DNA of 63,491 bases, counting the filler. It is 9 parts of 9 records of this genome, joined end to end, with 100 filler letters (N's around TTAATTAATTAA, not from the genome) between each part and the next. Parts side by side here need not be neighbours in the genome. Positions count along the whole stretch, not along the records: positions 39,484 to 44,720 come from SRR31156797_138260; 8 more parts are not named here. One strand, written 5' to 3'. Positions 8,395-58,145 of this stretch are shown piece by piece (position 1 is the stretch's first letter; each line of letters opens with the position of its first letter). The position numbers were made by a program, and so were the translations under genes. The notes below the pieces were generated by a model, which saw only the letters and a list, made by a program, of their open reading frames with translations, did not search any database and was not told the origin of the DNA.

Positions 8395-8494
8395 NNNNNN
8401 NNNNNNNNNNNNNNNNNNNNNNNNNNNNNNNNNNNNNNTTAATTAATTAANNNNNNNNNNNNNNNNNNNNNNNNNNNNNNNNNNNNNNNNNNNN
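8395..8494. other. Artificial contig spacer
   Basis: 44 N + TTAATTAATTAA (stops in all frames) + 44 N. Confidence 0.99.
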
Positions 8495-12721: not shown

Positions 12722-12729
12722 GGGGCATC

Positions 12730-13818: not shown

Positions 13819-13825
13819 CGGCGGG

Positions 13826-15220: not shown

Positions 15221-16338
15221 ACATCGGACGCACCGATACGAGCATCCTGGGACGCTGGTGGTGGACCGTCGACCGCTGGACCCTGGCCGCCCTGGTGATG
15301 ATTGTTTCCCTCGGTGCCGTCCTGACCCTGGCCGCGTCGCCGCCGGCGGCCGAACGCATCGGGCTCGACACCTTCCACTTCGCGCGCCGGCAGTTCGTTT
15401 TCCTGCCGATGGCCCTGTGCGTCATGATGGTGGCATCGTTGCTTTCGATCCGCGGCGTCCGCCGGCTTTCCGCCATCGTCTTCGTGGCGGCGGCGGTTCT
15501 GATGATCGCGGTGCTGCTGTTTGGCACCGAAATCAAGGGCGCGACGCGTTGGCTCCAAGTCGGGCCGATCGCGCTGCAGCCGTCCGAATTCATGAAACCG
15601 GCCTTTGCCGTTCTGTCGGCCTGGATGTTCGCCGAAAACCGACTCGACGACCGTTTCCCCGGGTATCTCGTCGCCACCGGCTTGTACCTGTTTGTCGCCG
15701 CCCTGTTGGTGATGCAGCCCGACGTCGGCACCACCATCCTGATTTCGGCGATCTGGGCGGTGCAGTTCTTCGTTGCCGGCCTACCGCTGGCCTGGGTCGG
15801 AATGATCGGCGCCGGGTTCCTGGGCGCCGCAGTTGCCGCTTATTTCACGTTTTCCCACGTCCAGACCCGGGTCGACCGCTTTCTCGATCCCGCCGCCGGT
15901 GAGGGATACCAGGTGACGCAGGGGCTTGAGGCGTTCCGAAACGGCGGTTTTTTCGGGCGCGGCCCGGGCGAGGGCGAAATCAAGGCCGTACTTCCCGACG
16001 CCCATACCGACTTCGTTTTTTCCGTCGCCGGCGAGGAATTCGGCCTATGGCTGTGCCTGCTGGTTGTCGGGCTGTTCGCTTTTGTCGTGTTGCGCGGGTT
16101 TGCGCGGGTGCTGCGCGAAGAGAACCTGTTCGTCGTGCTGGCCGTGGCCGGGCTTCTGGTCCTATTCGGCCTGCAGGCGATCATCAACATGGGGTCGGCC
16201 CTGCACTTGATGCCACCGAAGGGGATGACGCTGCCGTTTATTTCCTACGGCGGGTCTTCGGCCCTGGCTCTGGCCATGGCCATGGGAATGGTTCTGGCCC
16301 TGACCCGAAACCGCCTGCAGCGCGGAGGTGCCGAATGA
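15217..16338 (+). CDS. ftsW: SEDS peptidoglycan glycosyltransferase FtsW
   Basis: KGATRW, QPSEFMKP, LPDAHTDF and PKGMTLPFISYGGS; alphaproteobacterial-type WWWTVDRW N-terminus. Confidence 0.95.
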   Translation: MNIGRTDTSILGRWWWTVDRWTLAALVMIVSLGAVLTLAASPPAAERIGLDTFHFARRQFVFLPMALCVMMVASLLSIRGVRRLSAIVFVAAAVLMIAVLLFGTEIKGATRWLQVGPIALQPSEFMKPAFAVLSAWMFAENRLDDRFPGYLVATGLYLFVAALLVMQPDVGTTILISAIWAVQFFVAGLPLAWVGMIGAGFLGAAVAAYFTFSHVQTRVDRFLDPAAGEGYQVTQGLEAFRNGGFFGRGPGEGEIKAVLPDAHTDFVFSVAGEEFGLWLCLLVVGLFAFVVLRGFARVLREENLFVVLAVAGLLVLFGLQAIINMGSALHLMPPKGMTLPFISYGGSSALALAMAMGMVLALTRNRLQRGGAE

Positions 16339-17474
16339 CCGGCGCTTATTCCTCCTTGGTCGTGCTGGCGGCCGGCGGTACCGGCGGCCACGTCTTCCCG
16401 GCCCAGGCGCTGGCGGCCGAACTTGCCGAGCGCGGCAACCGGGTCGTGCTGATGACCGACGAACGCGGCAGCGCCCATGGCGAAAGCAGCGGCATTTCCG
16501 AGGTTATGCGCATTCGCGCCGGCGGCTTGGCCGGCAAGGGGCTGGGCGCGCGCCTTTGCAGCGGGTTTGAACTGGCGTTCGGGACATTTCAGGCCCGGCG
16601 CCTGCTGGCCCGCCTGCGTCCGGCGGCGGTTGTCGGTTTCGGCGGCTATGCTTCGGTGCCGACCATGATGGCGGCCCGTTTTGCCGGATTCAACACAGCC
16701 ATTCACGAACAAAATGCTGTTTTAGGCCGTGCCAACCGGTTGCTGGCGCCGAAAGTGTCGCGGATCGCAACGGCATTCGAGGATTCACAGGGACTGCCGA
16801 CCAATGGCGTGGCGAAGATCGTGCATACCGGTATGCCGGTCCGCCCGGCGATTGCCGAGAAGCAAAACAGCGGCTATCCGGCCATCGATGCCGATGGCCC
16901 GATCAACCTTCTGGTTTTGGGCGGCAGCCAAGGCGCCCACGTCTTTACCGAAGTCGTGCCGGCCGCCTTGAAGGCGCTGCCGGAGAATCTGAAAGGCCGA
17001 CTGAGGGTATCCCAGCAGTGCCGGCCCGAAGACCTGGATGAAACCCGGCAGGCGTATTTGGACAGCGGTATCGGAGTCGATCTGGCGACCTTCTTCGCGG
17101 ACGTTCCCGAACGCTTGATGGCGGCGCATCTCCTGATTTCTCGGTCCGGCGCTTCGACCGTGGCCGAGGTTCTGGCGATCGGACGGCCGACGATTTTGGT
17201 GCCTTACCCGCATGCCATCGATGATCATCAGTCGTTCAATGCCCATGCCGTCGCCGAAGCCGGTGCCGGCTGGCTGATGCCGCAGGAATCCTTCTCGGCC
17301 CGGGCTCTGAGCGCAAGGCTTGAATCCCTGTTCGGGCTTCCGGCCACCCTGCAAAAGGCAGCGGCCGCGGCCCGCTTGGTCGGCCGTTCCGACGCGGCGG
17401 CGCGATTGGCCGACATGGTTTGCGAACTGCTGCCGTCCAACGGCGAACCGGTAGACGGAAGGAAAGCGGCATGA
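16335..17474 (+). CDS. murG: Lipid II GlcNAc transferase
   Basis: AGGTGGHVFPA, HEQNA, GGSQGA and SRSGASTVAE. Confidence 0.97.
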   Translation: MTGAYSSLVVLAAGGTGGHVFPAQALAAELAERGNRVVLMTDERGSAHGESSGISEVMRIRAGGLAGKGLGARLCSGFELAFGTFQARRLLARLRPAAVVGFGGYASVPTMMAARFAGFNTAIHEQNAVLGRANRLLAPKVSRIATAFEDSQGLPTNGVAKIVHTGMPVRPAIAEKQNSGYPAIDADGPINLLVLGGSQGAHVFTEVVPAALKALPENLKGRLRVSQQCRPEDLDETRQAYLDSGIGVDLATFFADVPERLMAAHLLISRSGASTVAEVLAIGRPTILVPYPHAIDDHQSFNAHAVAEAGAGWLMPQESFSARALSARLESLFGLPATLQKAAAAARLVGRSDAAARLADMVCELLPSNGEPVDGRKAA

Positions 17475-17542
17475 TGGCCCTTCCGCTCGATATCGGTCCC
17501 ATGCACTTTGTCGGCATCGGCGGCATCGGCATGAGCGGCATT
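17471..17542 (+). CDS. murC: UDP-MurNAc-L-Ala ligase, N-terminal fragment
   Basis: MMALPLDIGPMHFVGIGGIGMSGI directly after murG. Confidence 0.9.
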
Positions 17543-17642
17543 NNNNNNNNNNNNNNNNNNNNNNNNNNNNNNNNNNNNNNNNNNNNTTAATTAATTAANN
17601 NNNNNNNNNNNNNNNNNNNNNNNNNNNNNNNNNNNNNNNNNN
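17543..17642. other. Artificial contig spacer
   Basis: N-TTAATTAATTAA-N linker. Confidence 0.99.
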
Positions 17643-26616: not shown

Positions 26617-26716
26617 NNNNNNNNNNNNNNNNNNNNNNNNNNNNNNNNNNNNNNNNNNNNTTAATTAATTAANNNNNNNNNNNNNNNNNNNNNNNNNNNN
26701 NNNNNNNNNNNNNNNN
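26617..26716. other. Artificial contig spacer
   Basis: N-TTAATTAATTAA-N linker. Confidence 0.99.
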
Positions 26717-32935: not shown

Positions 32936-33035
32936 NNNNNNNNNNNNNNNNNNNNNNNNNNNNNNNNNNNNNNNNNNNNTTAATTAATTAANNNNNNNNN
33001 NNNNNNNNNNNNNNNNNNNNNNNNNNNNNNNNNNN
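32936..33035. other. Artificial contig spacer
   Basis: N-TTAATTAATTAA-N linker. Confidence 0.99.
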
Positions 33036-39383: not shown

Positions 39384-39483
39384 NNNNNNNNNNNNNNNNN
39401 NNNNNNNNNNNNNNNNNNNNNNNNNNNTTAATTAATTAANNNNNNNNNNNNNNNNNNNNNNNNNNNNNNNNNNNNNNNNNNNN
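39384..39483. other. Artificial contig spacer
   Basis: N-TTAATTAATTAA-N linker. Confidence 0.99.
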
Positions 39484-39869
39484 ATGGATAGAATGCTCAT
39501 CGCTGAGTTGGTACCATCGAACAAGGCCAACAGTCTGGCGGCCTATGCGTCTGTCGCACTGGAGAGATGGCTCCCGCTCCCTCGTCCTTTGGTCTTCTGA
39601 TCCCGCCTTTGGCGAATTGAATCACTTGCTTCAACCGCACGCGATGCTAACGATGCGGATGCCCCATCCCAAGCATTAAAGCCCTCCCCTTCTTGGCGCG
39701 ATTGCAGCAGAACACGGAAGATGCGGTTATACGTGAGTCCCAGAGGTGTAGTCAATAGTGTAGCCCCACGCACCTCGGGCCAGCTCCTTAGGCTTGTACG
39801 GACGGCGTACGGCTTCTCTCTCCGTCTTCCCCAGCCACGTATTTTCGCGTGCCATTCGCTTATTCCTGC

Positions 39870-39898
39870 TTGACAGAAGCATTGAAACCGATAAGTAT
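39870..39898 (+). promoter_or_regulatory. Putative sigma70-type promoter for the HU gene
   Basis: TTGACA at 39870-39875 and a weak -10 (TAAGTA/AAGTAT) 16-17 bp downstream; AAGGAG SD before ATG 39981. Confidence 0.45.
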
Positions 39899-39980
39899 GT
39901 CCCGCTTCCAGCACTAATGGGACGGATTTCGGAGCGTATTCCGACTCCCCCTTTTCTGTGGACGCAAGGAGATCATCTGT

Positions 39981-40313
39981 ATGGCAAAGAAGAAAACAGC
40001 GAAAGCCCCAGCCAAAGCTATGACCAAAAGCGAAATCGTCTCCGGCATCGCCGATGAAGTCGGACTGACCAAGAAGCAGATTAACGAGGTGTTCGAAGCA
40101 ATGGCCGGCCAGATCAAGAAGAGCCTCGGCCGGCGCGGTCCCGGCGCCTATACCATCCCAGGCCTGATGAAGTTGACGGTTGTTCGCAAACCCGCCACCA
40201 AGGCCCGTAAGGGTATCAATCCCTTCACCGGTGAAGAGACTACATTCAAGGCCAAACCGGCTCGCAACGTCGTGAAGACCCGGCCGCTCAAGAACCTCAA
40301 AGACATGGTCTGA
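39981..40313 (+). CDS. HU family DNA-binding protein
   Basis: MTKSEIV...GLTKKQ...RKGINPFTGE...KAKPAR; Lys/Ala-rich N-terminal extension. Confidence 0.92.
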   Translation: MAKKKTAKAPAKAMTKSEIVSGIADEVGLTKKQINEVFEAMAGQIKKSLGRRGPGAYTIPGLMKLTVVRKPATKARKGINPFTGEETTFKAKPARNVVKTRPLKNLKDMV

Positions 40314-40336
40314 TCGTCACCGTCCAGATGAGCATC

Positions 40337-40375
40337 ACAGGCCCACGTTGTCAGTCAGCACGTGGGCCTGTTTTT
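40337..40375 (+). terminator. Rho-independent terminator after the HU gene
   Basis: Perfect 12-bp stem ACAGGCCCACGT / ACGTGGGCCTGT, 11-nt loop, followed by a T run. Confidence 0.75.
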
Positions 40376-40725
40376 GACTTGAGATTGTCGACATTGCGAA
40401 CGTCCTGTTTCATCGCCTCCCGCCTAGCCTCATACCTCTCCCTGCTGATCCGAATCGCGTAGTCACGCAACTGCGTCCCAAACGTATTCTCAATCATCAG
40501 AATAGTCTCAAAGGCCTCCACATAGACATGGCTGAACAGCCGCTGGAATCGCCACCGCACGCCCTGCCGTGTCATGCGAAAGATCTTGTGGATCTTCTCG
40601 CCGTACGTACCCTTGAGAACCATGTAACTGGGGCTTGCAGCTTTCAACTCAACCCATAAGTCCTTCGACTCTATCAGTGCCTTCAGATTCTCCAAGAACG
40701 TCTTGTCTTTCTCCGTCAACTTCAT
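40351..40725 (-). CDS. Hypothetical protein, possible HTH DNA-binding protein
   Basis: 124 aa; IHKIFRMTRQGVRWRFQRL resembles an HTH recognition helix; last gene of the minus-strand operon. Confidence 0.6.
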   Translation of the reverse strand: MKLTEKDKTFLENLKALIESKDLWVELKAASPSYMVLKGTYGEKIHKIFRMTRQGVRWRFQRLFSHVYVEAFETILMIENTFGTQLRDYAIRISRERYEARREAMKQDVRNVDNLKSKTGPRAD

Positions 40726-41434
40726 GCTTCTTCACCATGATATCTCCCCCTTCGTGCCACACGTCCACGACCCCCGCATGGGCCAGGAATACAACCGCCA
40801 TGAACCTCCAGATCAGGTCCGTCCTCGGGCGTTCCCTGAGCGGTGGTATTTCAGCGAGGCTCACGGGACAATCGCGAATATGGACCTGTATGTGGTCCTC
40901 ATAAGCCTTGAGATCAAACCCATCGCCTGTCTCTATGGCCATGCTCTCATCAATGCCTGTAGTCAGGGCGTTCAATGCACCAACGAGGCCAGGCACGCTG
41001 CCAAGATCCGCATAGCCCAGGAGTAACTCACCGGACTGGCTCTCTGCCAACATCTGCCTGACCCGCTCCCGCTGCTCCTTCTTTCGTTTCCGTGACTCAG
41101 CCATCTTCAGCCGAAAGTAGTCTGGGTCAAACACGAGTCCATTGAAGAGGAACTTGGATGTGATGTCACTACCACAGTTGCTGCACTGGTACCGTCTCAC
41201 TCGCAACACGGGAACACCACCGCATTCTGAGCACCGCTGAAAAGCGACAGTCGGATCGAATTCCGTGCGACAGGAGATACACTGGCACATCCCCTCCGAC
41301 GTCATCGCCAACGAGCCACTGCAATTGGGGCAACGATGGCCAGTCAGCATCACACTGTAGAAGAACCTGCGGGCCCTCTCCAGGAAGGCCTCCACAGCCT
41401 CGGCCATCTCAAGGGCCAATAATCTGATGTTCAT
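40649..41434 (-). CDS. Multi zinc-ribbon protein with a ScpA/kleisin-like C-terminal winged helix
   Basis: Likely start MNIRLL at 41434. Four CxxC pairs (CPNC, CISC, CSEC, CSNC), a basic coiled segment, and C-terminal WRFMAVVFLAHAGVVDVWHEGGDIMV. Confidence 0.6.
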   Translation of the reverse strand: MNIRLLALEMAEAVEAFLERARRFFYSVMLTGHRCPNCSGSLAMTSEGMCQCISCRTEFDPTVAFQRCSECGGVPVLRVRRYQCSNCGSDITSKFLFNGLVFDPDYFRLKMAESRKRKKEQRERVRQMLAESQSGELLLGYADLGSVPGLVGALNALTTGIDESMAIETGDGFDLKAYEDHIQVHIRDCPVSLAEIPPLRERPRTDLIWRFMAVVFLAHAGVVDVWHEGGDIMVKKHEVDGERQDVLGESEGTDRVEGLMG

Positions 41435-41750
41435 CGCTCGGCTCTTCGGGCTCGATGGATGTTGGAGTCTGTGAATCGTCCGTTTCCAGCATCCCAGGCT
41501 CCTCTGCCTCGGACGCAATGGCCTGGCTGATGTCACCGGCCTCGGGCTCAACTGACTCTGCTGTCTTGGCCTGCGGGGCCTCTGACCCCTCATGCGGCAC
41601 CAGTTTCTGATTCCTGGGAGTGAATCTACGTCCACAGCTTTTGCATCGGCGGATCTTGCGGATTCCCATAGCCTTGGTTGTTCGCGACCCCTTACTTGTC
41701 GTATCCGTGCTACCGCAGTAGACACATTTGACAGGTCTTCCTCTTGGCAT
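41409..41750 (-). CDS. Small zinc-ribbon protein (IS1 InsA-like ribbon) with an acidic tail
   Basis: KCVYCGSTDTTSKG...RRCKSCGRRFT; GAGGTGAT SD upstream. Confidence 0.7.
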   Translation of the reverse strand: MPRGRPVKCVYCGSTDTTSKGSRTTKAMGIRKIRRCKSCGRRFTPRNQKLVPHEGSEAPQAKTAESVEPEAGDISQAIASEAEEPGMLETDDSQTPTSIEPEEPSDEHQIIGP

Positions 41751-41785
41751 TTGTAATCACCTCACGAGACCTTGAGAGGCCGGAG

Positions 41786-41801
41786 TTTATAAACCTGTCG
41801 G
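41786..41801 (-). promoter_or_regulatory. Archaeal-type BRE/TATA promoter candidate for the zinc-ribbon operon
   Basis: The minus strand reads CCGACAGG-TTTATAAA about 35 bp upstream of ATG 41750, followed by a GAGGTGAT SD. Confidence 0.5.
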
Positions 41802-41821
41802 TTTAGGGCCCGGGGGACAGT

Positions 41822-42010
41822 AGTTTTCGAGTGGAACTTCTGGAGCGACCTGAGCCGCGTGACGACCGTGCCAAGTCTACAGGTCAATGGCAGGCCCCTT
41901 GGTCGCGTATGAGATAAGATGCGAGCGTGTTCCACTGGAAGCCTGCTGCTCAGTGGCTCCATGAGAAGTGGTCCCGTGGCACACGAGTTTTCTAGTGGAA
42001 CCACTGGAAC
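41822..42010. repeat. ORB-like boxes, consensus GTTCCA(C/G)TNG, 4 copies
   Basis: 41822-41837 (-) GTTCCACTCGAAAACT; 41929-41941 (+) GTTCCACTGGAAG; 41986-42001 (-) GTTCCACTAGAAAACT; 41998-42010 (-) GTTCCAGTGGTTC. Confidence 0.65.
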
Positions 42011-42200
42011 GATATGGTTTCCGTCGGTCAAAACGTGCGCCATAGGGGGTACGGAGTTTACACGTCGCTACGTCAGATCATGGAGAGTCACCTGCAATCG
42101 TGCGAGCCGCTCAGTTGATCCCATCCTGCCGTAAACTCTCCCCCACGCATAAACTCCGGGTAGTAGGGGTTGGAGTTTACACGTCATCGAATGCTGATTC

Positions 42201-42250
42201 ATTATCTATTCTATCTTCTATTCTTTTCAATATAGAAGTATATTATATAG
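42201..42250. other. AT-rich tract, candidate DNA unwinding element
   Basis: 41 of 50 bases are A/T in an otherwise GC-balanced contig; flanked by inward-facing GGAGTTTA boxes. Confidence 0.6.
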
Positions 42251-42258
42251 CAAAGCGA

Positions 42259-42278
42259 TTGTCACTGACCAGTGACAA
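42259..42278. promoter_or_regulatory. Perfect inverted repeat, candidate dimeric protein binding site
   Basis: TTGTCACTG-AC-CAGTGACAA. Confidence 0.55.
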
Positions 42279-42400
42279 CAAAGAGCTATGAGATGGCACA
42301 CAACTGGCTGGCGCCTTCACGCTTAAACTCCGACCCCTACCCCTCATAAGATCAGATGCCAGAATAGTGTATAGAAGAAGCTGACGCGTAAACTCCAAGG

Positions 42401-43510
42401 TCACTCAAAGCGAAGCTTGCACGACTGCTCGGCAATCGCCTTATCGAATGTCAGAACGATCCGATTCGTATACGTGCGATCAATCTTGGCAGCCACCAAT
42501 GCCACGAGACCAACACTTTGGAGATATCCCAGGTTGGTATAGAAATACATATAGCTGAATGGTTTGATCTGATGATCGCGGCTATGGCGGCAGTACCGAT
42601 CATAGATATCCTTGACCAGATCTGATTGGCTCGTAGCTGCGGCCCACAGAATGATCAGATTCGCATCAGTCAGATCATTAACCTGGTCAATGACGATGTC
42701 TCTTCTCGCCGCTTCAAAGCATTCCGCAACACTGTCGTCCGGCTCAATCGTCTTATAGAACAAGGTCTTGATAGCCACGCGAGCATCCGAGTTGGTCCGC
42801 TGAGCCGTGAGGGCTGAGATCTGCGCGATGTGACTTTCGTCCCAGCCATTCAATCCCCTGCTGGCTCTGCCGAGCAGGATCTCGCCTAGCTGCTGGGCGT
42901 CGTAGTTTCGAAAGTACAACCGAAGCGGCTGTAGACTGCTGGACGTGGCCGCATCAAGTTGCTTCACCACATGCGGCGTGTTCGAGAGCATGATGACCAT
43001 ATAGGGTTGCTCGCTGCGACTGAGGAAATACAGAATCTCCCGGTTCTTGTCCTTGGGGCTCATCAGGTCCACCTCGTCCATGATCAGCACAGTCCGTTTC
43101 TGAAACTTCATCATAAACCGCTGATAGAGATCCCCCAGACTGGAGCCACCGATCTTCTCCTCGTCCAGCAAACGAGCGAAAATCTTGAAGCTCGTGTTAT
43201 GATGCCGGCAGTTCACATAAAGCACATCGAGTTCTGTCTTCTGAGAGACCATCCGCTGTAGGTACTTCAACATCAATGTCTTCCCCGAACCTCGGCTGCC
43301 GACAATGGCCATATGGGTTGGGATCCCGCTCATCTCGAACCGAAGCATGTGCTTGACGATCTGCTTGACTTCGGTCCGCTCGACCGGCTTTTCTGGTATG
43401 TAGTTGTAGTCGAAAACTGCAAAATCCTTCACTCGGCTTGAGGTTTGACCAAGATCTTCTCTCTTGTTGTCCAGGTAGGACGCGATATCCATGTGACGCA
43501 TCAACTCCAT
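42401..43510 (-). CDS. Orc1/Cdc6 family AAA+ replication initiator
   Basis: FDYNYIPEK, Walker A GSRGSGKT, LYVNC, Walker B LIMDEVD, ILYFLSR, FRNYDAQQLGEILLGRA, SDARVAI, and a wHTH-sized C-terminus. The start could be 43510, 43501 or 43492. Confidence 0.85.
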   Translation of the reverse strand: MELMRHMDIASYLDNKREDLGQTSSRVKDFAVFDYNYIPEKPVERTEVKQIVKHMLRFEMSGIPTHMAIVGSRGSGKTLMLKYLQRMVSQKTELDVLYVNCRHHNTSFKIFARLLDEEKIGGSSLGDLYQRFMMKFQKRTVLIMDEVDLMSPKDKNREILYFLSRSEQPYMVIMLSNTPHVVKQLDAATSSSLQPLRLYFRNYDAQQLGEILLGRASRGLNGWDESHIAQISALTAQRTNSDARVAIKTLFYKTIEPDDSVAECFEAARRDIVIDQVNDLTDANLIILWAAATSQSDLVKDIYDRYCRHSRDHQIKPFSYMYFYTNLGYLQSVGLVALVAAKIDRTYTNRIVLTFDKAIAEQSCKLRFE

Positions 43511-43531
43511 CCCCAGTATCAACTGAGCAAA

Positions 43532-43546
43532 TACTTAAACCTTTCG
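43532..43546 (-). promoter_or_regulatory. Archaeal-type BRE/TATA promoter candidate for the orc1/cdc6 gene
   Basis: The minus strand reads CGAAAGG-TTTAAGTA, ending about 22 bp before ATG 43510. Confidence 0.55.
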
Positions 43547-43647
43547 CGCCTCTCGGCAGTAGCAACCCAACAGGTGTCATCCGACTCACTGCTGAGCCGC
43601 CCATAAAAGCGCAACATATAAATAGTAGCGGCGCCATTAGGTCCCGT

Positions 43648-44720
43648 ATGAGACTCAAAGACTGGTGGCGTAACTGGCATCCGGAGGAATTGCTCGAAAG
43701 CTATCTACCGGATTTCATCCTGGCCTTCGCGTTCTTTACTTCAGTGGTCTATGCCGTTCTCGGCAAACGGTTTCAAAAACAACGGCCGGCAATTGCGATG
43801 TCGACGGCGATTGGCTTTGCTCTTTCCTTCGGCCTCGTATGGTGGGAGCAGGCAAATGACTTCTCCATTAAGAACCTCGGGCCAATCGCTGTCGGCTTTG
43901 CCCTTCTGCTGTTGGCCTTCGTCATGTACCAGTCCATTCACCAGATAGGTGGCTCTTGGGCTGGAGCAGGAATTACCATCGGACTAGCGATCATCATCGC
44001 CCAGTTGGTGGGAATGCCCATTCCCGTCGCCACCGAAATCATTCAGACAATCATCGTCGTTGCTTTGATCTTCGGATTGCTCGCCTTCATGTCGCACCGG
44101 CATCATCTGACTCCCCGAGTCCGTCCCTCCAAAACAGAATTACCAGATATCAAACACACCATGGCCAACCTCTATCGCCAGCGTCACCTCTCCAAAGGGC
44201 TTGACCATGGCCTGCAGAAACTCCGTAAGAAAGCCAAGACGCTCCAGGAACGTCCAGAAGAAGGCGGCAATATCCTTCGCCAGATCAAACGCATGCTACC
44301 GGCTCAGGGCTATCTGACCGAACGCATGGCCCAGCTTCGGGCCAAGGCCCATCAGGTTCGTAGTGGCCACATTGCCCGCCTCGAAGAAACACGTCAGGCA
44401 TTTGCCAAGCTGCCAACTCCGGCCAAGAAGAAGGCTGCCGCAGAACTCGCGGCCCGATACAACCAGATGGTCGGAATTGAGACCCGCCTCGAACGGCTTG
44501 ACCATGCGGCCGCCGAAAACGAAAAGCGCATCCGCGAACTGACTGCGAAGGCACAGGAATACACGGCCAAGTACGATTACCAGCAGCTTTGCCACACCCT
44601 AAAGGCCGCAGAGAAACTCCAGCATCACAACTCCAAGCTCATCAAGACTATCGAGCAGACAGAACACAAGCTCTCCGCAGTCGCGAAGGAAGTAGCAAAG
44701 GAGGTGAAGCAAGTTGAAAA
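43648..44720 (+). CDS. Membrane protein (about 5 TM) with a long C-terminal coiled coil (3'-truncated)
   Basis: Start MRLKDWW at 43648; hydrophobic N-half and heptad-rich C-half; TATAAATA at 43617-43624 and no obvious SD. Confidence 0.7.
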
Positions 44721-44820
44721 NNNNNNNNNNNNNNNNNNNNNNNNNNNNNNNNNNNNNNNNNNNNTTAATTAATTAANNNNNNNNNNNNNNNNNNNNNNNN
44801 NNNNNNNNNNNNNNNNNNNN
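44721..44820. other. Artificial contig spacer
   Basis: N-TTAATTAATTAA-N linker. Confidence 0.99.
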
Positions 44821-50285: not shown

Positions 50286-50385
50286 NNNNNNNNNNNNNNN
50301 NNNNNNNNNNNNNNNNNNNNNNNNNNNNNTTAATTAATTAANNNNNNNNNNNNNNNNNNNNNNNNNNNNNNNNNNNNNNNNNNNN
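50286..50385. other. Artificial contig spacer
   Basis: N-TTAATTAATTAA-N linker. Confidence 0.99.
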
Positions 50386-52046
50386 CGTCTTCGAAAAGAA
50401 CCGACGACGGCACCTTCGAACATACCTGTTACGCTCGCATCCGCGTGCCCGAGCAACGCCCGAATACGGGAATCCTCGACCCCGCCAGCGACCAGGGCAT
50501 CCTTGAAATTGTGGCGGAACGAGTGGAAAGAGACCTTCTTGGTCTTCGCGCCGATCGCCCGAAGGTAACGGCTAAAGTGTTTCGAGAAGTTATGGGAAAA
50601 GTAGCCGTCCTTGCCAGGCTTCACTTCGGGAAACAGCCTGCCTTTCGGCTGTGAATTTTTCATTTTCTCGACATGTGCCAAGAAACCCATCCTCTCCAGG
50701 TCAGGATGAACAGGAATAAGACGGCGACTTGATGCCGTCTTCAGCTGTTTGGTCTCGCCCTCACCCCTGGCAACATCGAAGACATAGACGTCGTCCTGTT
50801 CCCGTACGTCCTTGACGAGAAGTTGCACGATTTCACCTAAACGCATCCCTGAGAACAAACCGATCAACGGAACCCAGAACTTCCCGTCCTTTTCCATCTG
50901 ATTTCCGGGCTTGGTCCTGACCGTTATCGAGGAATGACCCGTATACTGGGGAGATTGGAAGATCACAGAAAGCTGCTCCTCCGAAAATGGCAAACGTGCG
51001 TCCTTCGGATCGGCCGATTTTCCGATCACTTTGATTTTGGCCCCCGGCGCTTTTTCGAGATACCCCTCGTCAACGCACCAATTCAGGAAACTTTTTAGGT
51101 TCAGAAAGTACTTGGTCGCCGTTTTCGGTGCCAAGCGCGGTAGGTCGCCAGCCATCGCAACAATCTGGCGCAAAGTTTTCCCTTCGAATTTCTTGGCCTT
51201 GGAGTGGTTTGTCGGCAGGTCCAACATCAGGTCCCGGAATTCTCTTACATCCTCGGTTTGGATGGCCGCTATGAGTTTGGCCGGGCCGAACAGATCGATA
51301 AACCAATCCAGCACACGCCGGTTTTCGCCGTAGGTCTTGGAGACCCAAACATGTTTGCCCTTTTGATCGCAGTACCGATCCGCAAGTTTTATCAATGACA
51401 GGTCGTGCGTCTCTGGCGTATCTCCGGGCTGGCCGGGCATGGGCGGAAGTCCGGGGCTGGAAAGTCCCTCGAACAGAGGATCCTTAGGGACCGTATCTTC
51501 GTAGCGGCCTTCCAGCATCGCCACAAAAATGCGGCATTTCTCGATCTGTGCCCGCAATACTCCGGCACAAATATAGTCAAAGGATTCGGTGTCCATCTTC
51601 CCTTCATCACCCGTTTCCGCAGACTCGATGCTACGAGCTGTGGAGATTTCAAGAATTTGGAAAGCTCTGTCCGCCAGACGACCACGAAGCAAAGAGGTAT
51701 GTTCTTTGGCCCCTTCGACCTCAAATTCTCGGGAGATGTCCAGGTCTTGCGGAATGAGTTCCGCAATTTCCTCGGCTTTCGACCACTCATCAAGGAAGTA
51801 CTGACGGATGCGCTCGTCTAATTTCTTACGGGAGACACCTGACATTGTATTCAGCCCGCCGATAAACTGTTCAAACCGGTTTGTGAGCTCACGACAGCGT
51901 ACCCGAGCGACGGCCAGATCACGAGTCCGAAGCGAAACCTTGATCTCACGGCGGTTGATCAGGCGCCGAATTCCTCGAGGTAAGGCGCGCCGAAAATAGT
52001 AGACGTTTCCGCGTCGCTGCAGATGAGGAACTCCCCGTCCCTTCAT
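50386..52046 (-). mobile_element. Tyrosine recombinase/integrase (DUF6538-type N-terminus) marking a genomic island at tRNA-Ser; 3'-truncated
   Basis: HLQRRGNVYYFRR...EIKVSLRTRD N-terminus; GMRLGE, FHSFRH and LLGH motifs; starts about 100 bp downstream of the tRNA 3' end. Confidence 0.9.
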
Positions 52047-52060
52047 TTCCGCGTCCCTGT

Positions 52061-52081
52061 TGTACCAGATCAATGTACCAG
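52061..52081. repeat. Short direct repeat TGTACCAG x2, candidate integrase arm sites
   Basis: Copies at 52061-52068 and 52074-52081, between the tRNA and the integrase start. Confidence 0.45.
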
Positions 52082-52146
52082 TCGCGGAAGAACGCCATTT
52101 TGCGCCGGGAAAAATCGTTTAAATTTCAGAGGGTTACTAAGAAAGA

Positions 52147-52236
52147 TGGCGGAGGGAGTGGGATTCGAACCCACGATACCCTTTCAGGTATACACACTTT
52201 CCAGGCGTGCGCCTTCAACCGCTCGGCCACCCCTCC
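52147..52236 (-). tRNA. tRNA-Ser(GGA)
   Basis: GGAGGGGTGGCCGAGCGG...CACGC-CT-GGA-AA-GTGTG, long variable arm, GTTCGAATC, encoded CCA; 90 nt. Confidence 0.96.
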
Positions 52237-52432
52237 ATGGGGGCGCAAAACTAGCCGACGGACGGGCCTCCTGCAACGGTTTTGAGCGCAAATCGGCGCA
52301 CCACGGCAAAGCCGGCGGTCGCGGCCGCACCGATGCCGCCCGGAGTTGCGCAAACCCCCAAGAAAAGCGCACAATGGAAGCGTCGGAACGGGCGATTCCG
52401 GCCATAGACGTTCAGGATAAGGAGCCCATCCC

Positions 52433-53131
52433 ATGTCGATCGATTCCCAAGGCGTGGTCAGAGCCTTCGTCAAGGCGGCCGAAGCCGGCGTTGAGCGCGA
52501 GATCGAGAAGGTCCACCTTCCGACCGTCATCGTGTCGCGCACCATCGGCAGTTGGGGAGACAAAATTGCCGCCGCCGTCGCCAAAAAACTCGGGGTCGAG
52601 ATCTACGGATCGGAAATCCTCGATTCGGTGGCGAAACAGGCCAAGGTCGACAAAAAGCTGTTGTCCAGCCTCAACGAAGTCGCCGGACAGCCGAGTGACG
52701 CCTGGCTGTATGCCACCTTCTTCGGCAAGAACGTATCCCGCGACGACTATCTGAACCACCTGGTCGCCACCGTGCGCGGCGTTCAGCGCATGGGCGGCGT
52801 CATATTGGGGCGCGGTTCGTACATCATCCTCGAAAACAAACCGGTGCTCCGGATTAGGATCACCGGCTCGGTCGAGGCCTGCGCCAAAAGGATTGCCGAA
52901 GAGGACGACAGCGCCATCGAGGCCGCCACCCGCAAGGTCCGCGAAAGCAACAAGAAGCGCGGCAAATTCGTCTGGGACATGTTTCACCGCCGCCTCAACG
53001 ATCCGACCAACTTCGATCTCGTCATCAACACCGACAAGTTCACGTCGATCGATCCGGCCGTCGACATCATCATGGCGGCCCTGCGGGCGACCGGTCTCGA
53101 CAAACCGGCAAAAAAAGCCGCCGCCGAATAG
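52433..53131 (+). CDS. Cytidylate kinase-like family protein
   Basis: VIVSRTIGSWGDKIA, GVILGRGS and DPTNFDLVINTD. Confidence 0.8.
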   Translation: MSIDSQGVVRAFVKAAEAGVEREIEKVHLPTVIVSRTIGSWGDKIAAAVAKKLGVEIYGSEILDSVAKQAKVDKKLLSSLNEVAGQPSDAWLYATFFGKNVSRDDYLNHLVATVRGVQRMGGVILGRGSYIILENKPVLRIRITGSVEACAKRIAEEDDSAIEAATRKVRESNKKRGKFVWDMFHRRLNDPTNFDLVINTDKFTSIDPAVDIIMAALRATGLDKPAKKAAAE

Positions 53132-53154
53132 CCGCGTTTGCGTCTTTGCCGTAT

Positions 53155-54063
53155 TCAGAAACTGTCGATGAAGGCGGCGCCCTCGACGCCGTGATAAAAT
53201 CCGTTGGCAAACGGAAGGTCGGGCACCAGTTCGCCGATCCTGATATCCGCCGCTTCCGCGTCCATTCGTCCGTCGAGAACGTCGCGGAAGATGCGGGTTA
53301 TCGCCACCATGTCGACCGACTGCGGCGACAGGCGGAAACGCGACAGGCCCATCTGTTGCAGGCTTTCCAACTCGGCGATCAGGTTGCCGCAGGCGCCGGA
53401 CAGGGTCTGCAAACCGTTGGCGGCCAGGAACAAGTCCCCGTCCAGCGTCTCGACCGCCAGGCCGTCGCCATCCTCGACGCAGACAAAGCCGCAGTTGTCC
53501 TTGGCCAGGCCGCGGGCCCGGGCGGCGTAGCAGCGGGCCGACAGGGCCAGCGGAAATCGCCCGAAAACCTGAACCTCGAGCTCGACCGGTGTTTTCGCCG
53601 CCAGCACCTTGAGGGAGTCGGCCGGTAGCTCGGCCGGCAGGCAGACCCGGGTGGCGCCGCGCGCCGCGAATGCCGCCAGTGTGCCTTCGTTATAGACGTT
53701 GACGTAGGGCCCGATCGCATGCGGCCGCCCGGCCAGAAGGGCGCAGGCCGAAACGTCGTTGGCCTCGATAAGAAAATCCGGCTCATCGGCCATCGCCTTG
53801 ACGGCGGCCAGGTCGTCGTCGCTCATGATCAGGGCCAGCGTCGAGAGCACCACCTCCTTGCCGCCGGCAACCAAGCGGTCGCGGACCGCATCGAAGACCT
53901 TGGAATTGGCCCCGATGCGTTTCTCGCAGACGACCTCGCCCAAATGCACGCAGCCGACATCGGCCTCGTCGGCGATGCGGAAATAGAAATCGCGCCAGGC
54001 CTCGGCGCCCCAGTGGAACAGCACCGGGCCGAGGGTCAGAACGGGTTTTTTGCCGGTGGCCAT
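53155..54063 (-). CDS. ubiV: O2-independent ubiquinone biosynthesis protein, U32 family
   Basis: LTLGPVLFHW, LGEVVCEKR, LALSARCY...NCGFVC and FANGFYHG; start MATGKKP. Confidence 0.92.
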   Translation of the reverse strand: MATGKKPVLTLGPVLFHWGAEAWRDFYFRIADEADVGCVHLGEVVCEKRIGANSKVFDAVRDRLVAGGKEVVLSTLALIMSDDDLAAVKAMADEPDFLIEANDVSACALLAGRPHAIGPYVNVYNEGTLAAFAARGATRVCLPAELPADSLKVLAAKTPVELEVQVFGRFPLALSARCYAARARGLAKDNCGFVCVEDGDGLAVETLDGDLFLAANGLQTLSGACGNLIAELESLQQMGLSRFRLSPQSVDMVAITRIFRDVLDGRMDAEAADIRIGELVPDLPFANGFYHGVEGAAFIDSF

Positions 54064-54067
54064 CGGC

Positions 54068-55057
54068 CTACTGCCAGTTCCGGCGATAGGCGCCGGAAGT
54101 CTGCTTACCGCCCTCGGCAATGGCGGTCAGTTCGGCAACCGGCACCGGTTCGCCGGCGGCGACGGCATCGGCGGCGCGCCTAAAAGCGGCGACCACCTGA
54201 CCGACATAGGCGCGGCCGCGCTGCCGGCCCTCGATCTTGAGCGCGGTGACGCCGGCGTCGGCCAGTTCGGGTAGCAGGTGAAGGGCGTTCAGCGACGACG
54301 GCTCCTCGAACAGGTACTGGGTTTTGCCGGCGACCCGGTAGCGGCCTTTGCAGGTCGTCGGATAGGCCGCCGGTTCCTCACCGTCGACCACATTGACCGT
54401 GAAATCGCCGAGCTTCGTGGCCATGGCGTCGCCGCGCTCGACATAGCGCACATGCTGAGCCGGTGAACAGACGCCTTCGCGGTTCGGTGATGACGGCGTC
54501 GCGTAGGACGAGAACATGCAACGGCCTTCGGCCATGACGCAAAGACCGCCGAAGACGAAGACCTCGGTCTCGACCGCGATTTTGGCATTCAGGCGGGCGA
54601 TTTCGCCGACCGTCAGGACGCGCGGCAGGACGACCCGCCTGACCCCGAAGCTTTCGCAATAAAAGCGTATCGATTCCGGGTTCGAGGCCGACGCCTGCAC
54701 CGACAGATGGCGGCGCAGGTCCGGGTGGTTGCGCATGGCGTAATCGGCCAGGCCGACATCGGCCAGGATGACGGCATCGGCGCCCAACCGGGCGGCATCG
54801 TCGACGGCCCGGTGCCAGGGATCCTGGTTGCCGGCGCGCGGGAACGTGTTGATGGCGACCAGGATCTTCGACCCCCGGTCATGGGCGTAGGCGATGCCGT
54901 CTTGCAGTTCGTCGCGGCTGAAATTGAGGCCGGGGAAATTGCGCGCGTTGGTTTCGTCGCGAAAACCCAGATAGACGGAATCGCCGCCGGCATCGACGGC
55001 GGCGCGCAGGCTGGCCGGGGTGCCGGCCGGGCAGACCAGTTCGAGCCTTCGTTTCAT
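54068..55057 (-). CDS. ubiU: O2-independent ubiquinone biosynthesis protein, U32 family
   Basis: ELVCPAG, TNARNFPGLNF, GGLCVMAEGRC, GVCSP, CKGR and KIEGRQRG. Confidence 0.94.
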   Translation of the reverse strand: MKRRLELVCPAGTPASLRAAVDAGGDSVYLGFRDETNARNFPGLNFSRDELQDGIAYAHDRGSKILVAINTFPRAGNQDPWHRAVDDAARLGADAVILADVGLADYAMRNHPDLRRHLSVQASASNPESIRFYCESFGVRRVVLPRVLTVGEIARLNAKIAVETEVFVFGGLCVMAEGRCMFSSYATPSSPNREGVCSPAQHVRYVERGDAMATKLGDFTVNVVDGEEPAAYPTTCKGRYRVAGKTQYLFEEPSSLNALHLLPELADAGVTALKIEGRQRGRAYVGQVVAAFRRAADAVAAGEPVPVAELTAIAEGGKQTSGAYRRNWQ

Positions 55058-55752
55058 GCCTTCGCCGTCTTGCCCGGCGTCGTCCGGCGGCGCCGGGCGC
55101 TTCGCTGTTGCGGTTCGGCGGCGCCGATCTTTTCTTCGAGATCGCGCAAGTTGGCGGCTTGCGCCTCGGTCCGGCGCAGGGCCGGCGCCAGGATGGCGTC
55201 GCGCAGCGTCTCCAGGTCGCGGGCGGCGCGCGAAAACAACAAACCGGCGGTGTCGACCGCAACCCGGGCCGGAGCGGACAGCGGCCCCAGAGGCGACAGC
55301 AGGTCGCCGATCAGATCGATCTCGGCATCGTCGATGGCGTTGCGAAGCGCCACCACGGCCTCGGTATCGCCTTCGAAAACCAGGTCGCGCGAGAAGAACA
55401 GGCTATCGCCGTCGATGCGGCCCTCGAGCAGATCGATCAGCTTCAACAGCGGCCCGCGGATGATCGCCGTCGTTTCGGTTTCTTCCGCCCGGTCGCGGCG
55501 CACGGCGCGCAAAGACGGATGTCCCGCGTCGGCTTCGAGCCAAAAAACGAAGGGCAGTTCGATCGCATCGATCAGGAACGAGGGCGCGCCCAAACCGCTC
55601 AGACGGTCGAACAGGTTCGGGTGGCGGCGCAGCACCGTTCGTAGCGCCAGGTTCAGCCCCGGCTGCAGGGCGATCGGCGGCAGCGGGCGGGCGGCAAGTC
55701 CGGCCAGCAAAACCGGCGAGAAGGGCGGGGTCAGTGGGCGTTTCGGGGGCAT
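55054..55752 (-). CDS. ubiT: SCP2-domain ubiquinone biosynthesis accessory factor
   Basis: DGDSLFFSRDLVFEGDTEAVVALRNAID; directly upstream of ubiU. Confidence 0.9.
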   Translation of the reverse strand: MPPKRPLTPPFSPVLLAGLAARPLPPIALQPGLNLALRTVLRRHPNLFDRLSGLGAPSFLIDAIELPFVFWLEADAGHPSLRAVRRDRAEETETTAIIRGPLLKLIDLLEGRIDGDSLFFSRDLVFEGDTEAVVALRNAIDDAEIDLIGDLLSPLGPLSAPARVAVDTAGLLFSRAARDLETLRDAILAPALRRTEAQAANLRDLEEKIGAAEPQQRSARRRRTTPGKTAKA

Positions 55753-55873
55753 GGTTCGATCCAGGTTAAAAGGCTTTGCCCGACCATCCTGCTATAACCC
55801 ATTGCGCATATGGCCGCAACGGCGGCGCCAACTTTGCTTGGCCTCGGGACGCCCGGTGCGGCTATCATGGGCC

Positions 55874-56485
55874 ATGCGCATTTCCAAGCAAATCGGACTG
55901 GTGCTTCTTGTCATCGCCCTGCTCGGCGCCGTTGCGGAAACCATGGCGCACGCCCAGCCCGGCGTCAAAGGGGTTTTCCTGTCCGCCTACGACGTGCTCT
56001 ATGCCCTGTGGCCCGGAAAGCTGATCGTCGCCAAGATCCATATCGAGCGCGAACTCGGCGCGACCGCCTGGGACCCGTTTGCGGTTGGGTTCCTGGCCCT
56101 GCCCCTGTGGCTGATTTTCGGACTGCCGGGCGGCATTCTGTTGTGGCTGGGTGTGCGGCGTCCGGGAGGCAAAAGGAGCGCCAAGGCCGACGAGTTGGAG
56201 GAATCGCTTTTTCTGTTCGATTCCCTGGCCGAGCGGGCCCGCGAGGAAGGCTATGTGGACGACGACGACGACGACGATCCCCGCTTCGAGCCGCAATTCG
56301 CCACCGCCTTCGACGCCCGTCCGCCGGCGCCGGACCTGCTCGACGGCGCCGACGAGGCCGAGGACGGCCAGGACAAGCCAAGCGAGCCCGGCACGCCGGA
56401 AAACCCGATCGTCCTGACGTCCGATTCGGCCGTTGAAGCGGACGAAATCGAAGCGCCAGATAAAGAGATTCCTAAAAAGGAATAA
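55874..56485 (+). CDS. Hypothetical membrane protein with an acidic low-complexity tail
   Basis: Start MRISKQIG at 55874; 2 TM segments and a D/E/P-rich C-terminus. Confidence 0.6.
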   Translation: MRISKQIGLVLLVIALLGAVAETMAHAQPGVKGVFLSAYDVLYALWPGKLIVAKIHIERELGATAWDPFAVGFLALPLWLIFGLPGGILLWLGVRRPGGKRSAKADELEESLFLFDSLAERAREEGYVDDDDDDDPRFEPQFATAFDARPPAPDLLDGADEAEDGQDKPSEPGTPENPIVLTSDSAVEADEIEAPDKEIPKKE

Positions 56486-56500
56486 CGGGGTGGCTAACGC

Positions 56501-58045
<1,545 letters not shown>

Positions 58046-58145
58046 NNNNNNNNNNNNNNNNNNNNNNNNNNNNNNNNNNNNNNNNNNNNTTAATTAATTA
58101 ANNNNNNNNNNNNNNNNNNNNNNNNNNNNNNNNNNNNNNNNNNNN
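58046..58145. other. Artificial contig spacer
   Basis: N-TTAATTAATTAA-N linker. Confidence 0.99.

Follow-up and report, generated by a model that had tools for sequence, protein, structure and literature searches.

An Orc1/Cdc6-family gene with an adjacent origin-like element in putative mobile elements of Planctomycetota

The DNA analysed here, called the window below, is a stretch of 63,491 bases made of nine joined contigs of 5.2–9.0 kb each, with GC contents from 0.49 to 0.64. The subject of this work is a cassette that occupies a single contig of the window (39484–44720; 5,237 bp, GC 0.537). It combines a gene for an Orc1/Cdc6-family AAA+ protein (orc), an origin-like non-coding element directly past the orc stop codon, an operon of three zinc-ribbon/helix-turn-helix (HTH)-like proteins, a divergent membrane gene, and a gene for an HU-type protein. 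Replication initiation divides the domains of life: Bacteria rely on DnaA or Rep proteins loading DnaB, and Archaea and Eukarya on Orc1/Cdc6 proteins loading MCM. A previous inspection of the letters alone (the sequence-only reading) had proposed a self-contained initiator-plus-origin cassette of archaeal ancestry, possibly an Orc1-based replicon inside a bacterial genome. The features of orc and of the non-coding region are the following.

42401–43510, minus strand: Orc1/Cdc6-family AAA+ gene, candidate initiator, 369 amino acids (aa) from ATG, with a TIGR02928 match
41751–42400, no strand: gene-free region of 650 bp directly past the orc stop, without a plausible gene
42053–42396, no strand: origin-like core with five boxes of a G-string plus GGAGTTTAyrCGT, exact GGAGTTTAHRCGY matches
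42053–42065 (plus), 42145–42157 (minus), 42172–42184 (plus), 42319–42331 (minus), 42384–42396 (minus): the boxes, two on the plus and three on the minus strand
42186–42276, no strand: AT-rich candidate unwinding tract inside the spacer between facing boxes, with low GC and conserved motifs
42226–42237: conserved TTCAATATAGAA, inside the spacer
42261–42276: palindrome GTCACTGACCAGTGAC, inside the spacer
41806–42012, no strand: second repeat family, comprising two direct repeats of 43 nt and a partner in inverted orientation
41826–41837 (minus), 41929–41940 (plus, exact GTTCCACTGGAA), 41990–42001 (minus): cores like those of mini-origin recognition boxes (mini-ORB), matching TTCCASTGGAA
43496–43508, minus strand: one-mismatch box GGAGTTGATGCGT, overlapping the orc start and first codons

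The orc product carries the motifs NYIPEK, GSRGSGKT, YVNC, DEVD, FRNYDAQQLGEILLGRA, and SDARVAI; an alternative TTG start at 43522 would give a product of 373 aa. TIGR02928, the NCBIfam model of the orc1/cdc6 family, matched the protein with E=9.7e-36 (residues 35–342 to model positions 6–350 of 366). Pfam returned generic AAA families, with ORC-CDC6-like at 23.6 bits (cut-off 27) and no match of Cdc6_C at E≤0.01. The PHROGs search gave a clamp-loader-like AAA+ match, and PADLOC gave weak P-loop matches (best E=8e-5). A family profile was built from an alignment (A1) of 36 family members over 365 positions. Searched against PDB, it matched 21 distinct sequences, every one of them an ORC or Cdc6 protein. 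The best match was Sulfolobus Orc1-1 (2qby_A; E=1.4e-33, profile positions 33–357 of 365 against residues 16–371 of 386), and this alignment extends through the winged helix. Further matches were Orc1-3 (5.4e-28), Aeropyrum ORC1 (1e-23), and Pyrobaculum Cdc6 (5.6e-16); that of Aeropyrum ORC2 was much weaker (E=1e-12).

Residues G71, G74, G76, K77, D145, E146, N177, D242, and R244 were invariant in the 36 sequences. The Walker A, Walker B, sensor-1 N, and sensor-2 DAR motifs are thus invariant and align with the same motifs of 2qby_A. The AlphaFold model of Orc, which is confident (pLDDT 88.6, pTM 0.83), showed a five-stranded core, a helical lid, and a C-terminal winged helix composed of helices 282–293, 299–312, and 320–332, a beta-hairpin wing at 336–353, and a helix at 357–368 (pLDDT ~80–92). 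Two helices (107–114 and 125–135) lie between strands 2 (95–100) and 3 (140–145), which we take to be the position of the initiator-specific insert; the 107–135 stretch aligns with the corresponding region of Orc1-1 in the profile alignment. The Orc protein is a divergent but complete member of the Orc1/Cdc6 family and not a generic ATPase.

The box pattern is more frequent than chance would give: GGAGTTTAHRCGY, with up to one mismatch, has six matches in the 63.5-kb window against 0.54 expected, and six were reached in 0 of 100 shuffles. The boxes at 42172–42184 (plus) and 42319–42331 (minus) are convergent across a spacer of 134 nt, in which the GC content falls to 0.233 (42200–42259) from 0.537 contig-wide. 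In the second repeat family, the direct repeats (41806–41848 and 41970–42012) are 79% alike. Its cores read GTTCCACTCGAA, GTTCCACTGGAA, and GTTCCACTAGAA and are identical to the dyad core of the origin recognition box (ORB) of archaea. Up to two mismatches from GTTCCACTGGAA, 14 matches were found against 5.78 expected, a number reached in 1 of 100 shuffles; five of them fall in 41826–42009. The archaeal consensus ORB is listed as CTTCCAGTGGAAACGAAAGGGGT and that of Methanomassiliicoccales as GTTCCACTGGAAACAG-AGGGGT in Table 2 of PMC4153887. By its position over the orc start, the one-mismatch box is a possible autoregulatory site; in 10 of the 94 loci described below, a box precedes the start of the Orc match by 14–33 nt (L012, L014, L064, L067, L085, L102, L109, L113, and L115 among them). 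All motifs, repeat families, genes, and other features that the sequence-only reading had named for orc, for the ~650-bp region, for the operon, and for the divergent gene are present.

Conservation of the non-coding element was followed in 94 loci with relatives of orc (823,382 bp), namely 14 genome loci and 80 metagenome loci, the latter being the best 80 of 256 confirmed. Of 183 box matches in the 94 loci, 173 lie within 800 bp of orc, a zone that makes up 118,748 of the 823,382 bp; near-duplicate loci across collections (L001/L038, L005/L084, L095/L097) mean that such counts overstate independence. The predicted synteny of initiator and repeats thus holds in homologous loci. In the 14 genome loci and the window, 37 of 42 matches of AGTTWANNVGT were found within 800 bp outside orc, with at least one in every locus. 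Loci without the strict box pattern have close variants, e.g., GCGGAGTTAACACGCT or GGAGTGTACGCGT. An alignment of 16 loci (A2) revealed a fixed order past the stop codon, i.e., box, box, TGTTGTCACTG-N5-AGTGGTAAT, TTCaATATtGAAA with an A-rich run, and an inverted box; invariant columns are present in every ordered element, and the order is retained down to ~55% Orc identity. With a relaxed pattern, a convergent box pair 60–260 nt apart was detected in 66 of 94 loci (median spacer 140 nt), and the lowest-GC 40-nt window of the spacer had a median GC of 0.17 versus a locus median of 0.55. About 15 of the 28 loci without such a pair end less than 320 nt past the orc stop. A logo of 247 boxes added a G-rich 5′ flank to the motif. 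The mini-ORB core TTCCASTGGAA, with up to one mismatch, was matched 33 times in the 94 loci, and 26 of these matches, in 17 loci, are within 1200 bp of orc.

Two pairs of loci (L080/L081 and L071/L072) have no boxes directly past the orc stop; an unrelated, coding-looking insert of at least ~2 kb parts orc from the operon there, probably an insertion into the origin-like region.

A word-indexed search returned at least 593 relatives of Orc, the best 120 of which were 56–91% identical. Among these best 120, five carried an organism name, and all five were Planctomycetota or Phycisphaerae metagenome-assembled genomes (MAGs) with contigs of up to 721 kb. Some relatives are already named 'orc1/cdc6 family replication initiation protein' in database records. 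The naming of hosts rests on the titles of the 14 genome loci (one genome per species), the 80 metagenome contigs being untitled; by title the genome loci comprise 11 Planctomycetota, two 'uncultured bacterium', and one Actinomycetes MAG. The window contig itself shows ~80% DNA identity over 4.3 kb to L001, a 75-kb contig of a Pirellulales MAG. DnaA was detected above cut-off in 5 of 5 host MAGs checked. Genes with sigma-70 region 2 share a contig with orc in G004:C23 (13 kb away) and G005:C29; in the controls, this region was matched in 10 of 10 bacterial and 0 of 4 archaeal genomes. The search for the MCM family in the five host MAGs yielded weak partial matches only (≤33 bits), as in all 10 bacterial controls. 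These hosts thus possess the usual bacterial initiator, DnaA, and orc is an accessory gene in them. Regarding the proposed Orc1-based replicon in bacteria, the bacterial hosts with DnaA are thus established for the relatives, and the replicon activity is a prediction.

Matches at E≤1e-20 were found in 7 of 401 sampled genomes of the phylum, with three copies in G003 and two in G004. All eight strong matches in five MAGs were free of internal stops. One MAG holds two distinct copies of orc with boxes at contig ends (L003 and L004; 88% DNA identity over 1.26 kb), and assembly breaks at these places are consistent with a repeated element. The locus titled Actinomycetes MAG (L006; contig of 145,964 bp) contains a family member with two boxes, 308 bp from the contig end. 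The tree described below nests it in the Planctomycetota clade, which indicates either cross-phylum transfer or mis-binning.

The genetic context of the relatives is that of mobile elements. The two G004 copies share 70–82% DNA identity over ~28–30 kb, and their genes include HATPase_c_3, DUF6573, ThiF, a HerA/TraG-P-loop ATPase, Replic_Relax, further AAA proteins, and Fic. The Replic_Relax (relaxase-like) match scored 38.2 bits; the HerA/DUF87/TraG-P-loop ATPase matches were weak, at or below the cut-offs except for DUF87. In L005, as in its near-duplicate L084, a tyrosine integrase directly follows the operon, and in L005 HATPase_c_3 and DUF2958 come next. L007 carries AbiEi/AbiEii and a tyrosine integrase 6 kb from orc, and L062 carries DUF488, DUF2958, and a pair of AAA_5 and CobT-like genes. 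Mating-pore genes were not identified. This set of neighbours looks like an integrative, possibly transferable island. Intact genes, patchy presence, diverged copies, and mosaic modules indicate ongoing mobility and selection. Of the mobile-element genes anticipated for the cassette, integrase, relaxase-like, and toxin–antitoxin genes are found as neighbours in relatives; the window contig has no integrase, and the borders of the G004 copies have no att repeats. In L013, a tRNA-Glu gene (12066–12140) is located ~325 bp beyond the point where homology to the L009 element ends and may be an integration site.

Two other identities of the element found no support. Against a prophage, tblastn with 50,697 phage records gave no match, no relative of the cassette was found in IMG/VR, and the 'terminase' match of the HerA-like ATPase was weak and confined to the P-loop. 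Against an autonomous plasmid, none of the 94 contigs was found to be circular, and the 5,237-bp stretch is internal to a contig of 62,677 bp in the likely source run.

The nearest named relatives outside the family are archaeal. Among 72,556 plasmid records searched, 308 matched, all below 60% identity and nearly all haloarchaeal by name. The best of them was the Cdc6 protein of pPO1, a 7.6-kb plasmid of Picrophilus oshimae (29% identity over 350 aa end to end, E=7e-44). A profile search of 1.84 billion cluster representatives returned 173 proteins at E≤1e-30 and 2,009 at E≤1e-10; among ten intermediate matches looked up, two were named clusters, both 'Cdc6/Cdc18 family protein [Thermoprotei archaeon]'. 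A maximum-likelihood tree was built from 60 rows, most of them unnamed: the window, 11 genome loci, pPO1, pRMAS01, two distant Planctomycetota matches, 43 full-length representatives picked from 150 listed, and P0280. According to this midpoint-rooted tree, the titled Planctomycetota loci together with the 'Actinomycetes' and 'uncultured bacterium' loci form one clade (support 98/94, 99/93). Sister to it is a group (100/96) with pPO1 and the two Thermoprotei proteins; the node uniting the two groups has a support of 99/94. The topology fits an archaeal-plasmid connection; midpoint rooting does not prove the direction of transfer, which we infer. The archaeal ancestry put forward in the sequence-only reading thus has an archaeal plasmid and an archaeal MAG as nearest named outgroups, and a transfer from archaea is the presumed route.

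A distant second Orc1/Cdc6-like lineage was also observed in Planctomycetota (L032, G175:C222; L033, G199:C212); the family profile matches its two members with E=1e-28 and 5e-24. Its place in the tree is with the protein of the Methanothermobacter plasmid pRMAS01, apart from the main family.

The other features of the cassette contig are as follows.

41409–41750, minus strand: small zinc-ribbon protein, operon gene 1, GRPxKCxYCGS...RRCKSCGRRFTP with an acidic tail
40649–41434, minus strand: ZnLong, 261 aa, operon gene 2, with two CxxC...CxxC zinc ribbons
40351–40725, minus strand: ORF124, operon gene 3, small conserved protein with the motif MTRQGVRWRFQ
43648–44720, plus strand: membrane and coiled-coil gene with N-terminal hydrophobic helices, divergent from orc
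39981–40313, plus strand: HU/IHF-family gene with a Lys-rich N-terminal tail, Pfam Bac_DNA_binding E=5.9e-19
40338–40375, no strand: hairpin and T-run, likely terminator, with an 11-bp stem and an 11-nt loop, between the convergent HU and ORF124 genes

The small zinc-ribbon protein matched Pfam Zn_ribbon_NrdR with E=6e-7 (29.7 bits against a cut-off of 27.2). ZnLong is laid out as an N-terminal helix, two zinc ribbons, a long helix, and a C-terminal domain of helices plus a hairpin. Its eight cysteines are invariant in an alignment of 21 sequences (A3), and its AlphaFold model is of medium confidence (pLDDT 71.9, pTM 0.37). Searched against PDB, the ZnLong profile returned nothing significant, the best hit being a kinesin coiled coil (E=0.002). 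ORF124, possibly an HTH protein, had no match in Pfam, NCBIfam, PADLOC, or PHROGs. The membrane/coiled-coil protein, whose gene is truncated at the contig end with a loss of ~50 codons, matched no family in Pfam, PADLOC, or PHROGs. The HU protein also gave a DNA-binding family match in PHROGs. PADLOC reported nothing for the five proteins other than Orc and thus no defence system. Scored by tblastn over the 94 loci, many of them on short contigs, the neighbours were the membrane gene (53 loci), the small zinc ribbon (49), ZnLong (42), ORF124 (35), a HerA/DUF87-like ATPase (20), a HATPase_c_3 protein (16), and HU (4). Homologues of the membrane gene are 50–80% identical and stand upstream of orc on the opposite strand, and those of ORF124 always stand beside a ZnLong homologue.

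An adjoining HU gene with its own bacterial signals had been part of the argument for a bacterial setting. The gene is real, and by direct reading TTGACA (39870–39875), AAGGAG (39966–39971), and the hairpin (40338–40375) are there. The consensus scan did not list these signals, and the hairpin loop exceeds its 8-nt limit. Little weight is therefore given to the promoter, Shine–Dalgarno, and terminator signals of HU. Homologues of HU (82–88% identical) are neighbours only in L001, L038, L096, and L114. In L096 and L114, HU directly follows the ORF124 homologue, as in the window contig; compared with the window, HU is 83–88% and ORF124 70–78% identical, and Orc only 55–56%. Such mosaic identities point to a presumed shuffling of modules, in which the unit of orc and boxes appears to have been exchanged between element backbones. 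A further HU gene (G001:C83:186-515), 88% identical to that of the window, stands at the start of a small contig in the Pirellulales MAG that carries the closest cassette; the other HU of this MAG, near the cassette, is 82% identical.

The contigs of the window are separated by eight linkers of the form N44-TTAATTAATTAA-N44, at these positions.

8395–8494
17543–17642
26617–26716
32936–33035
39384–39483
44721–44820
50286–50385
58046–58145

The cassette is a separate contig of 5,237 bp because N linkers bound both its sides. The TonB-receptor and AraC genes on the left and the Jag and MnmE genes on the right belong to other contigs without physical link to the cassette, and the support once drawn from these other genes of the window falls away. 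Two contigs, 8495–17542 (GC 0.64) and 50386–58045 (GC 0.62), differ from the others (0.49–0.55), and this spread suggests a mixed bin. The MnmE of the next contig (45456–46850) shows 31–34% identity to the MnmE proteins of the five MAGs with the closest Orc relatives; therefore, either the bin is mixed, or the record comes from another lineage, or the element has crossed lineages. In run X1, a possible source, all 5,237 bp were recovered with zero differences inside one contig of 62,677 bp, and the stretch is therefore no small free plasmid in that assembly. The first 500 nt of the cassette contig (39484–39985) gave one weak tblastx match to related loci and no more, and Rfam and tRNA scans of the 5,237 bp gave no matches. 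Three marine-sediment metagenome runs from two studies yielded short related fragments only, too little to name a habitat.

Family membership, a conserved architecture linked to orc, bacterial hosts with DnaA, and patchy, multi-copy, mobile-element-like contexts are observed, and the proposal of the sequence-only reading is supported in part. In our judgement, the cassette is probably the replication module of a family of integrative mobile elements, of the type of archaeal plasmids, living in bacteria. This element family of Planctomycetota is possibly conjugative or mobilisable. According to the mechanism we propose, the Orc1/Cdc6-type protein would use its winged helix and a helical insert in the ATPase domain to bind the boxes of G-string plus GGAGTTTAyrCGT that follow the stop codon of its gene. 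The ATP-bound protein would then melt the AT-rich spacer (~140 bp, with two further conserved motifs) between the facing boxes. The helicase would have to be bacterial because neither the cassette nor the hosts encode MCM; a host helicase of the DnaB type could be loaded, perhaps via the three co-conserved zinc-ribbon/HTH proteins, which may serve as adaptors or as regulators of copy number. The box with one mismatch at the start of orc would permit autorepression. The element would replicate when excised or newly transferred, and the host chromosome would stay on DnaA. That Planctomycetota mobile elements replicate in this manner, from an archaeal-type origin fired by Orc1/Cdc6 in cells with DnaA and without MCM and with loading of a DnaB-type helicase, is a proposal that we rate slightly less likely than not.

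Several results weigh against the replication-module reading. The TIGR02928 score of Orc (123.4 bits) is under the curated cut-off of 181.3, and the near-duplicate loci lower the number of independent observations. All four sigma-70-like sites of the contig are in the AT-rich tract, which could be a promoter. Neither the cassette nor its surroundings yielded a gene for a helicase, a primase, or MCM. Circularity would show as a terminal overlap of 20–200 nt, and this was absent from all 94 contigs. In the likely source run, the 5,237-bp stretch is internal to a 62,677-bp contig, with no free small replicon seen, and the claim of a self-contained replicon is accordingly withdrawn. A Pfam scan found no integrase on the window contig. 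In L001, the 4.4-kb cassette has ordinary-looking neighbours, a giant glucan-synthase-like gene and a subtilase gene, and no integrase lies closer than 10 kb. Where homology between the two G004 copies ends, no direct repeats of ≥13 nt were detected. We know of no Orc1-type protein that loads DnaB.

The main alternative is that the Orc1-like protein is a sequence-specific regulator or maintenance factor of the element, like the archaeal Orc1-2 damage-response regulator, with the boxes as operators, the AT-rich tract as the operon promoter, and no role in replication. We judge this rather unlikely. The four sigma-70-like matches at 42176–42271, three of which face the operon, agree with it, as do the box overlapping the orc start codon, the lack of a linked helicase or primase gene, and the lack of an episomal form. 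PMC9738581 describes archaeal Orc1-2 paralogues as regulators and not initiators; Orc1 paralogues of the non-initiator kind thus exist. However, the boxes track orc and not the operon: they are kept in L006, L007, and L012 without an operon within reach. In L009, L010, and L013, both boxes and operon are upstream of orc, and the boxes adjoin orc, parted from the operon by a Fic gene. A convergent pair, a spacer of ~140 nt, a tract of ~17% GC, and mini-ORB cores form the layout of an archaeal origin, and in the profile search the initiators Orc1-1 and Orc1-3 (1e-33 and 5e-28) matched much better than the ORC2 type did (1e-12). Regulation and initiation are, moreover, not mutually exclusive.

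A domesticated secondary chromosomal origin, or the decaying remains of an integrated element that has lost the ability to move or replicate alone, would explain the position of the L001 cassette between chromosomal-looking genes, the location of the window copy within 62.7 kb, and the failure to find att sites. We consider it improbable, given the intact genes and invariant catalytic residues of the family, the restriction of the gene to 7 of 401 genomes, the diverged multiple copies, and the mosaic modules of L096 and L114. It is more improbable still that the cassette is an NTPase-based conflict or defence system with the Orc/Cdc6-like AAA+ protein as sensor or effector and the zinc-ribbon proteins as partners. 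AbiE and Fic genes do occur in the same islands, and the ORC-CDC6-like family of Pfam is matched weakly; but PADLOC saw P-loops only in Orc and nothing in the other five proteins, no nuclease or other effector domain was found, and a conserved non-coding architecture is unexpected for such a system. The idea hardest to credit is that of an archaeal contig, contaminant or chimera, with an ordinary archaeal origin and an acquired HU gene. Membership in the Orc1 family and mini-ORB cores are archaeal hallmarks, and the window is a concatenation of mixed GC whose next contig encodes an MnmE distant from those of Planctomycetota MAGs. Against this stand the ~80% DNA identity to the 75-kb Pirellulales contig over 4.3 kb and the relatives on Planctomycetota contigs of up to 721 kb, some with sigma-70 genes, in MAGs that have DnaA.

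The module described here is an archaeal plasmid-type Orc1/Cdc6 gene with an origin-like element that is resident in presumed bacterial mobile elements. Dozens of bacterial contigs, in regions resembling mobile elements, hold an intact, conserved Orc1/Cdc6 gene linked to an origin-like element whose motif order is conserved. This raises the testable question of whether an Orc1-type initiator can cooperate with a bacterial replisome, and what adaptation that takes. The cassette suggests that some bacterial mobile elements copy themselves by machinery thought typical of archaea. If true, it would be a natural hybrid of two initiation systems supposed to be incompatible, a record of plasmid traffic between the domains, and a candidate replicon for genetic tools in Planctomycetota. 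In the literature searched, with subscription journals and supplements outside its reach, no description of an Orc1/Cdc6 origin module in Bacteria was found. The papers that name Orc1, Cdc6, and Planctomycetes together are theoretical essays. In passages of a 2026 preprint, TIGR02928 serves only as an archaeal marker, and those of a 2026 preprint on plasmid initiators mention Orc1/Cdc6 only as a distant relative of the WH1 domain of RepA (10.1101/2024.09.03.610885).

Among bacterial systems, iteron plasmids of the RepA type and the DnaA-oriC pair resemble the cassette in pairing an initiator gene with repeated binding sites and an AT-rich element for unwinding, and in recruiting the host replisome, as is proposed for the cassette. 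However, there is no homology beyond the AAA+ or winged-helix fold class, and DnaA is encoded separately in the host MAGs. The origins of haloarchaeal megaplasmids and integrated elements share with the cassette an accessory orc paired with its own adjacent origin and multiple diverged copies per genome; this pairing of orc/cdc6 genes and origins in haloarchaea is a principle stated in PMC3528665 and PMC3936714. The sequence similarity to these systems is only 24–28%, and the host domain and the accessory genes differ.

The Sulfolobus oriC1/Orc1-1 system is alike in the protein, which aligns with the family profile from the N-terminus through the winged helix, and in the G-string inverted repeats that flank an AT-rich tract beside orc, with three matches of the mini-ORB core in the cassette. 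In contrast to ORB origins, the family-wide GGAGTTTAyrCGT boxes are not the ORB consensus (TTCCAGTGGAAAC ... GGGG), although they have a G-rich 5′ flank. The cassette element is mostly downstream of orc and not upstream, its Orc does not reach the TIGR02928 cut-off, and it lacks an MCM partner.

The comparison with small archaeal plasmids of the pPO1 type (also pTA1) is the following. The box sequence differs, and the 6-ORF table of pPO1 (Table 4 of PMC3177234) lists neither the three zinc-ribbon/HTH genes nor the membrane gene. The host of pPO1 is an archaeon, whereas the hosts of the cassette are bacteria with DnaA and without a convincing MCM, and the cassette was seen only within larger contigs, never as a free small circle. 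A HerA/FtsK-type ATPase (COG0433) is carried by pPO1, and 20 of 94 loci have a HerA-like gene along with the cassette; these two HerA-like proteins share no significant similarity (E=0.004, P-loop only), and we count them as unrelated. For pPO1, passages of PMC3177234 report that single-stranded intermediates were not detected and propose theta replication with Cdc6 as the initiator beside an AT-rich repeat region, as in pTA1. The cassette and pPO1 have in common the same protein length and architecture and an AT-rich, repeat-bearing intergenic region that adjoins the cdc6 gene.

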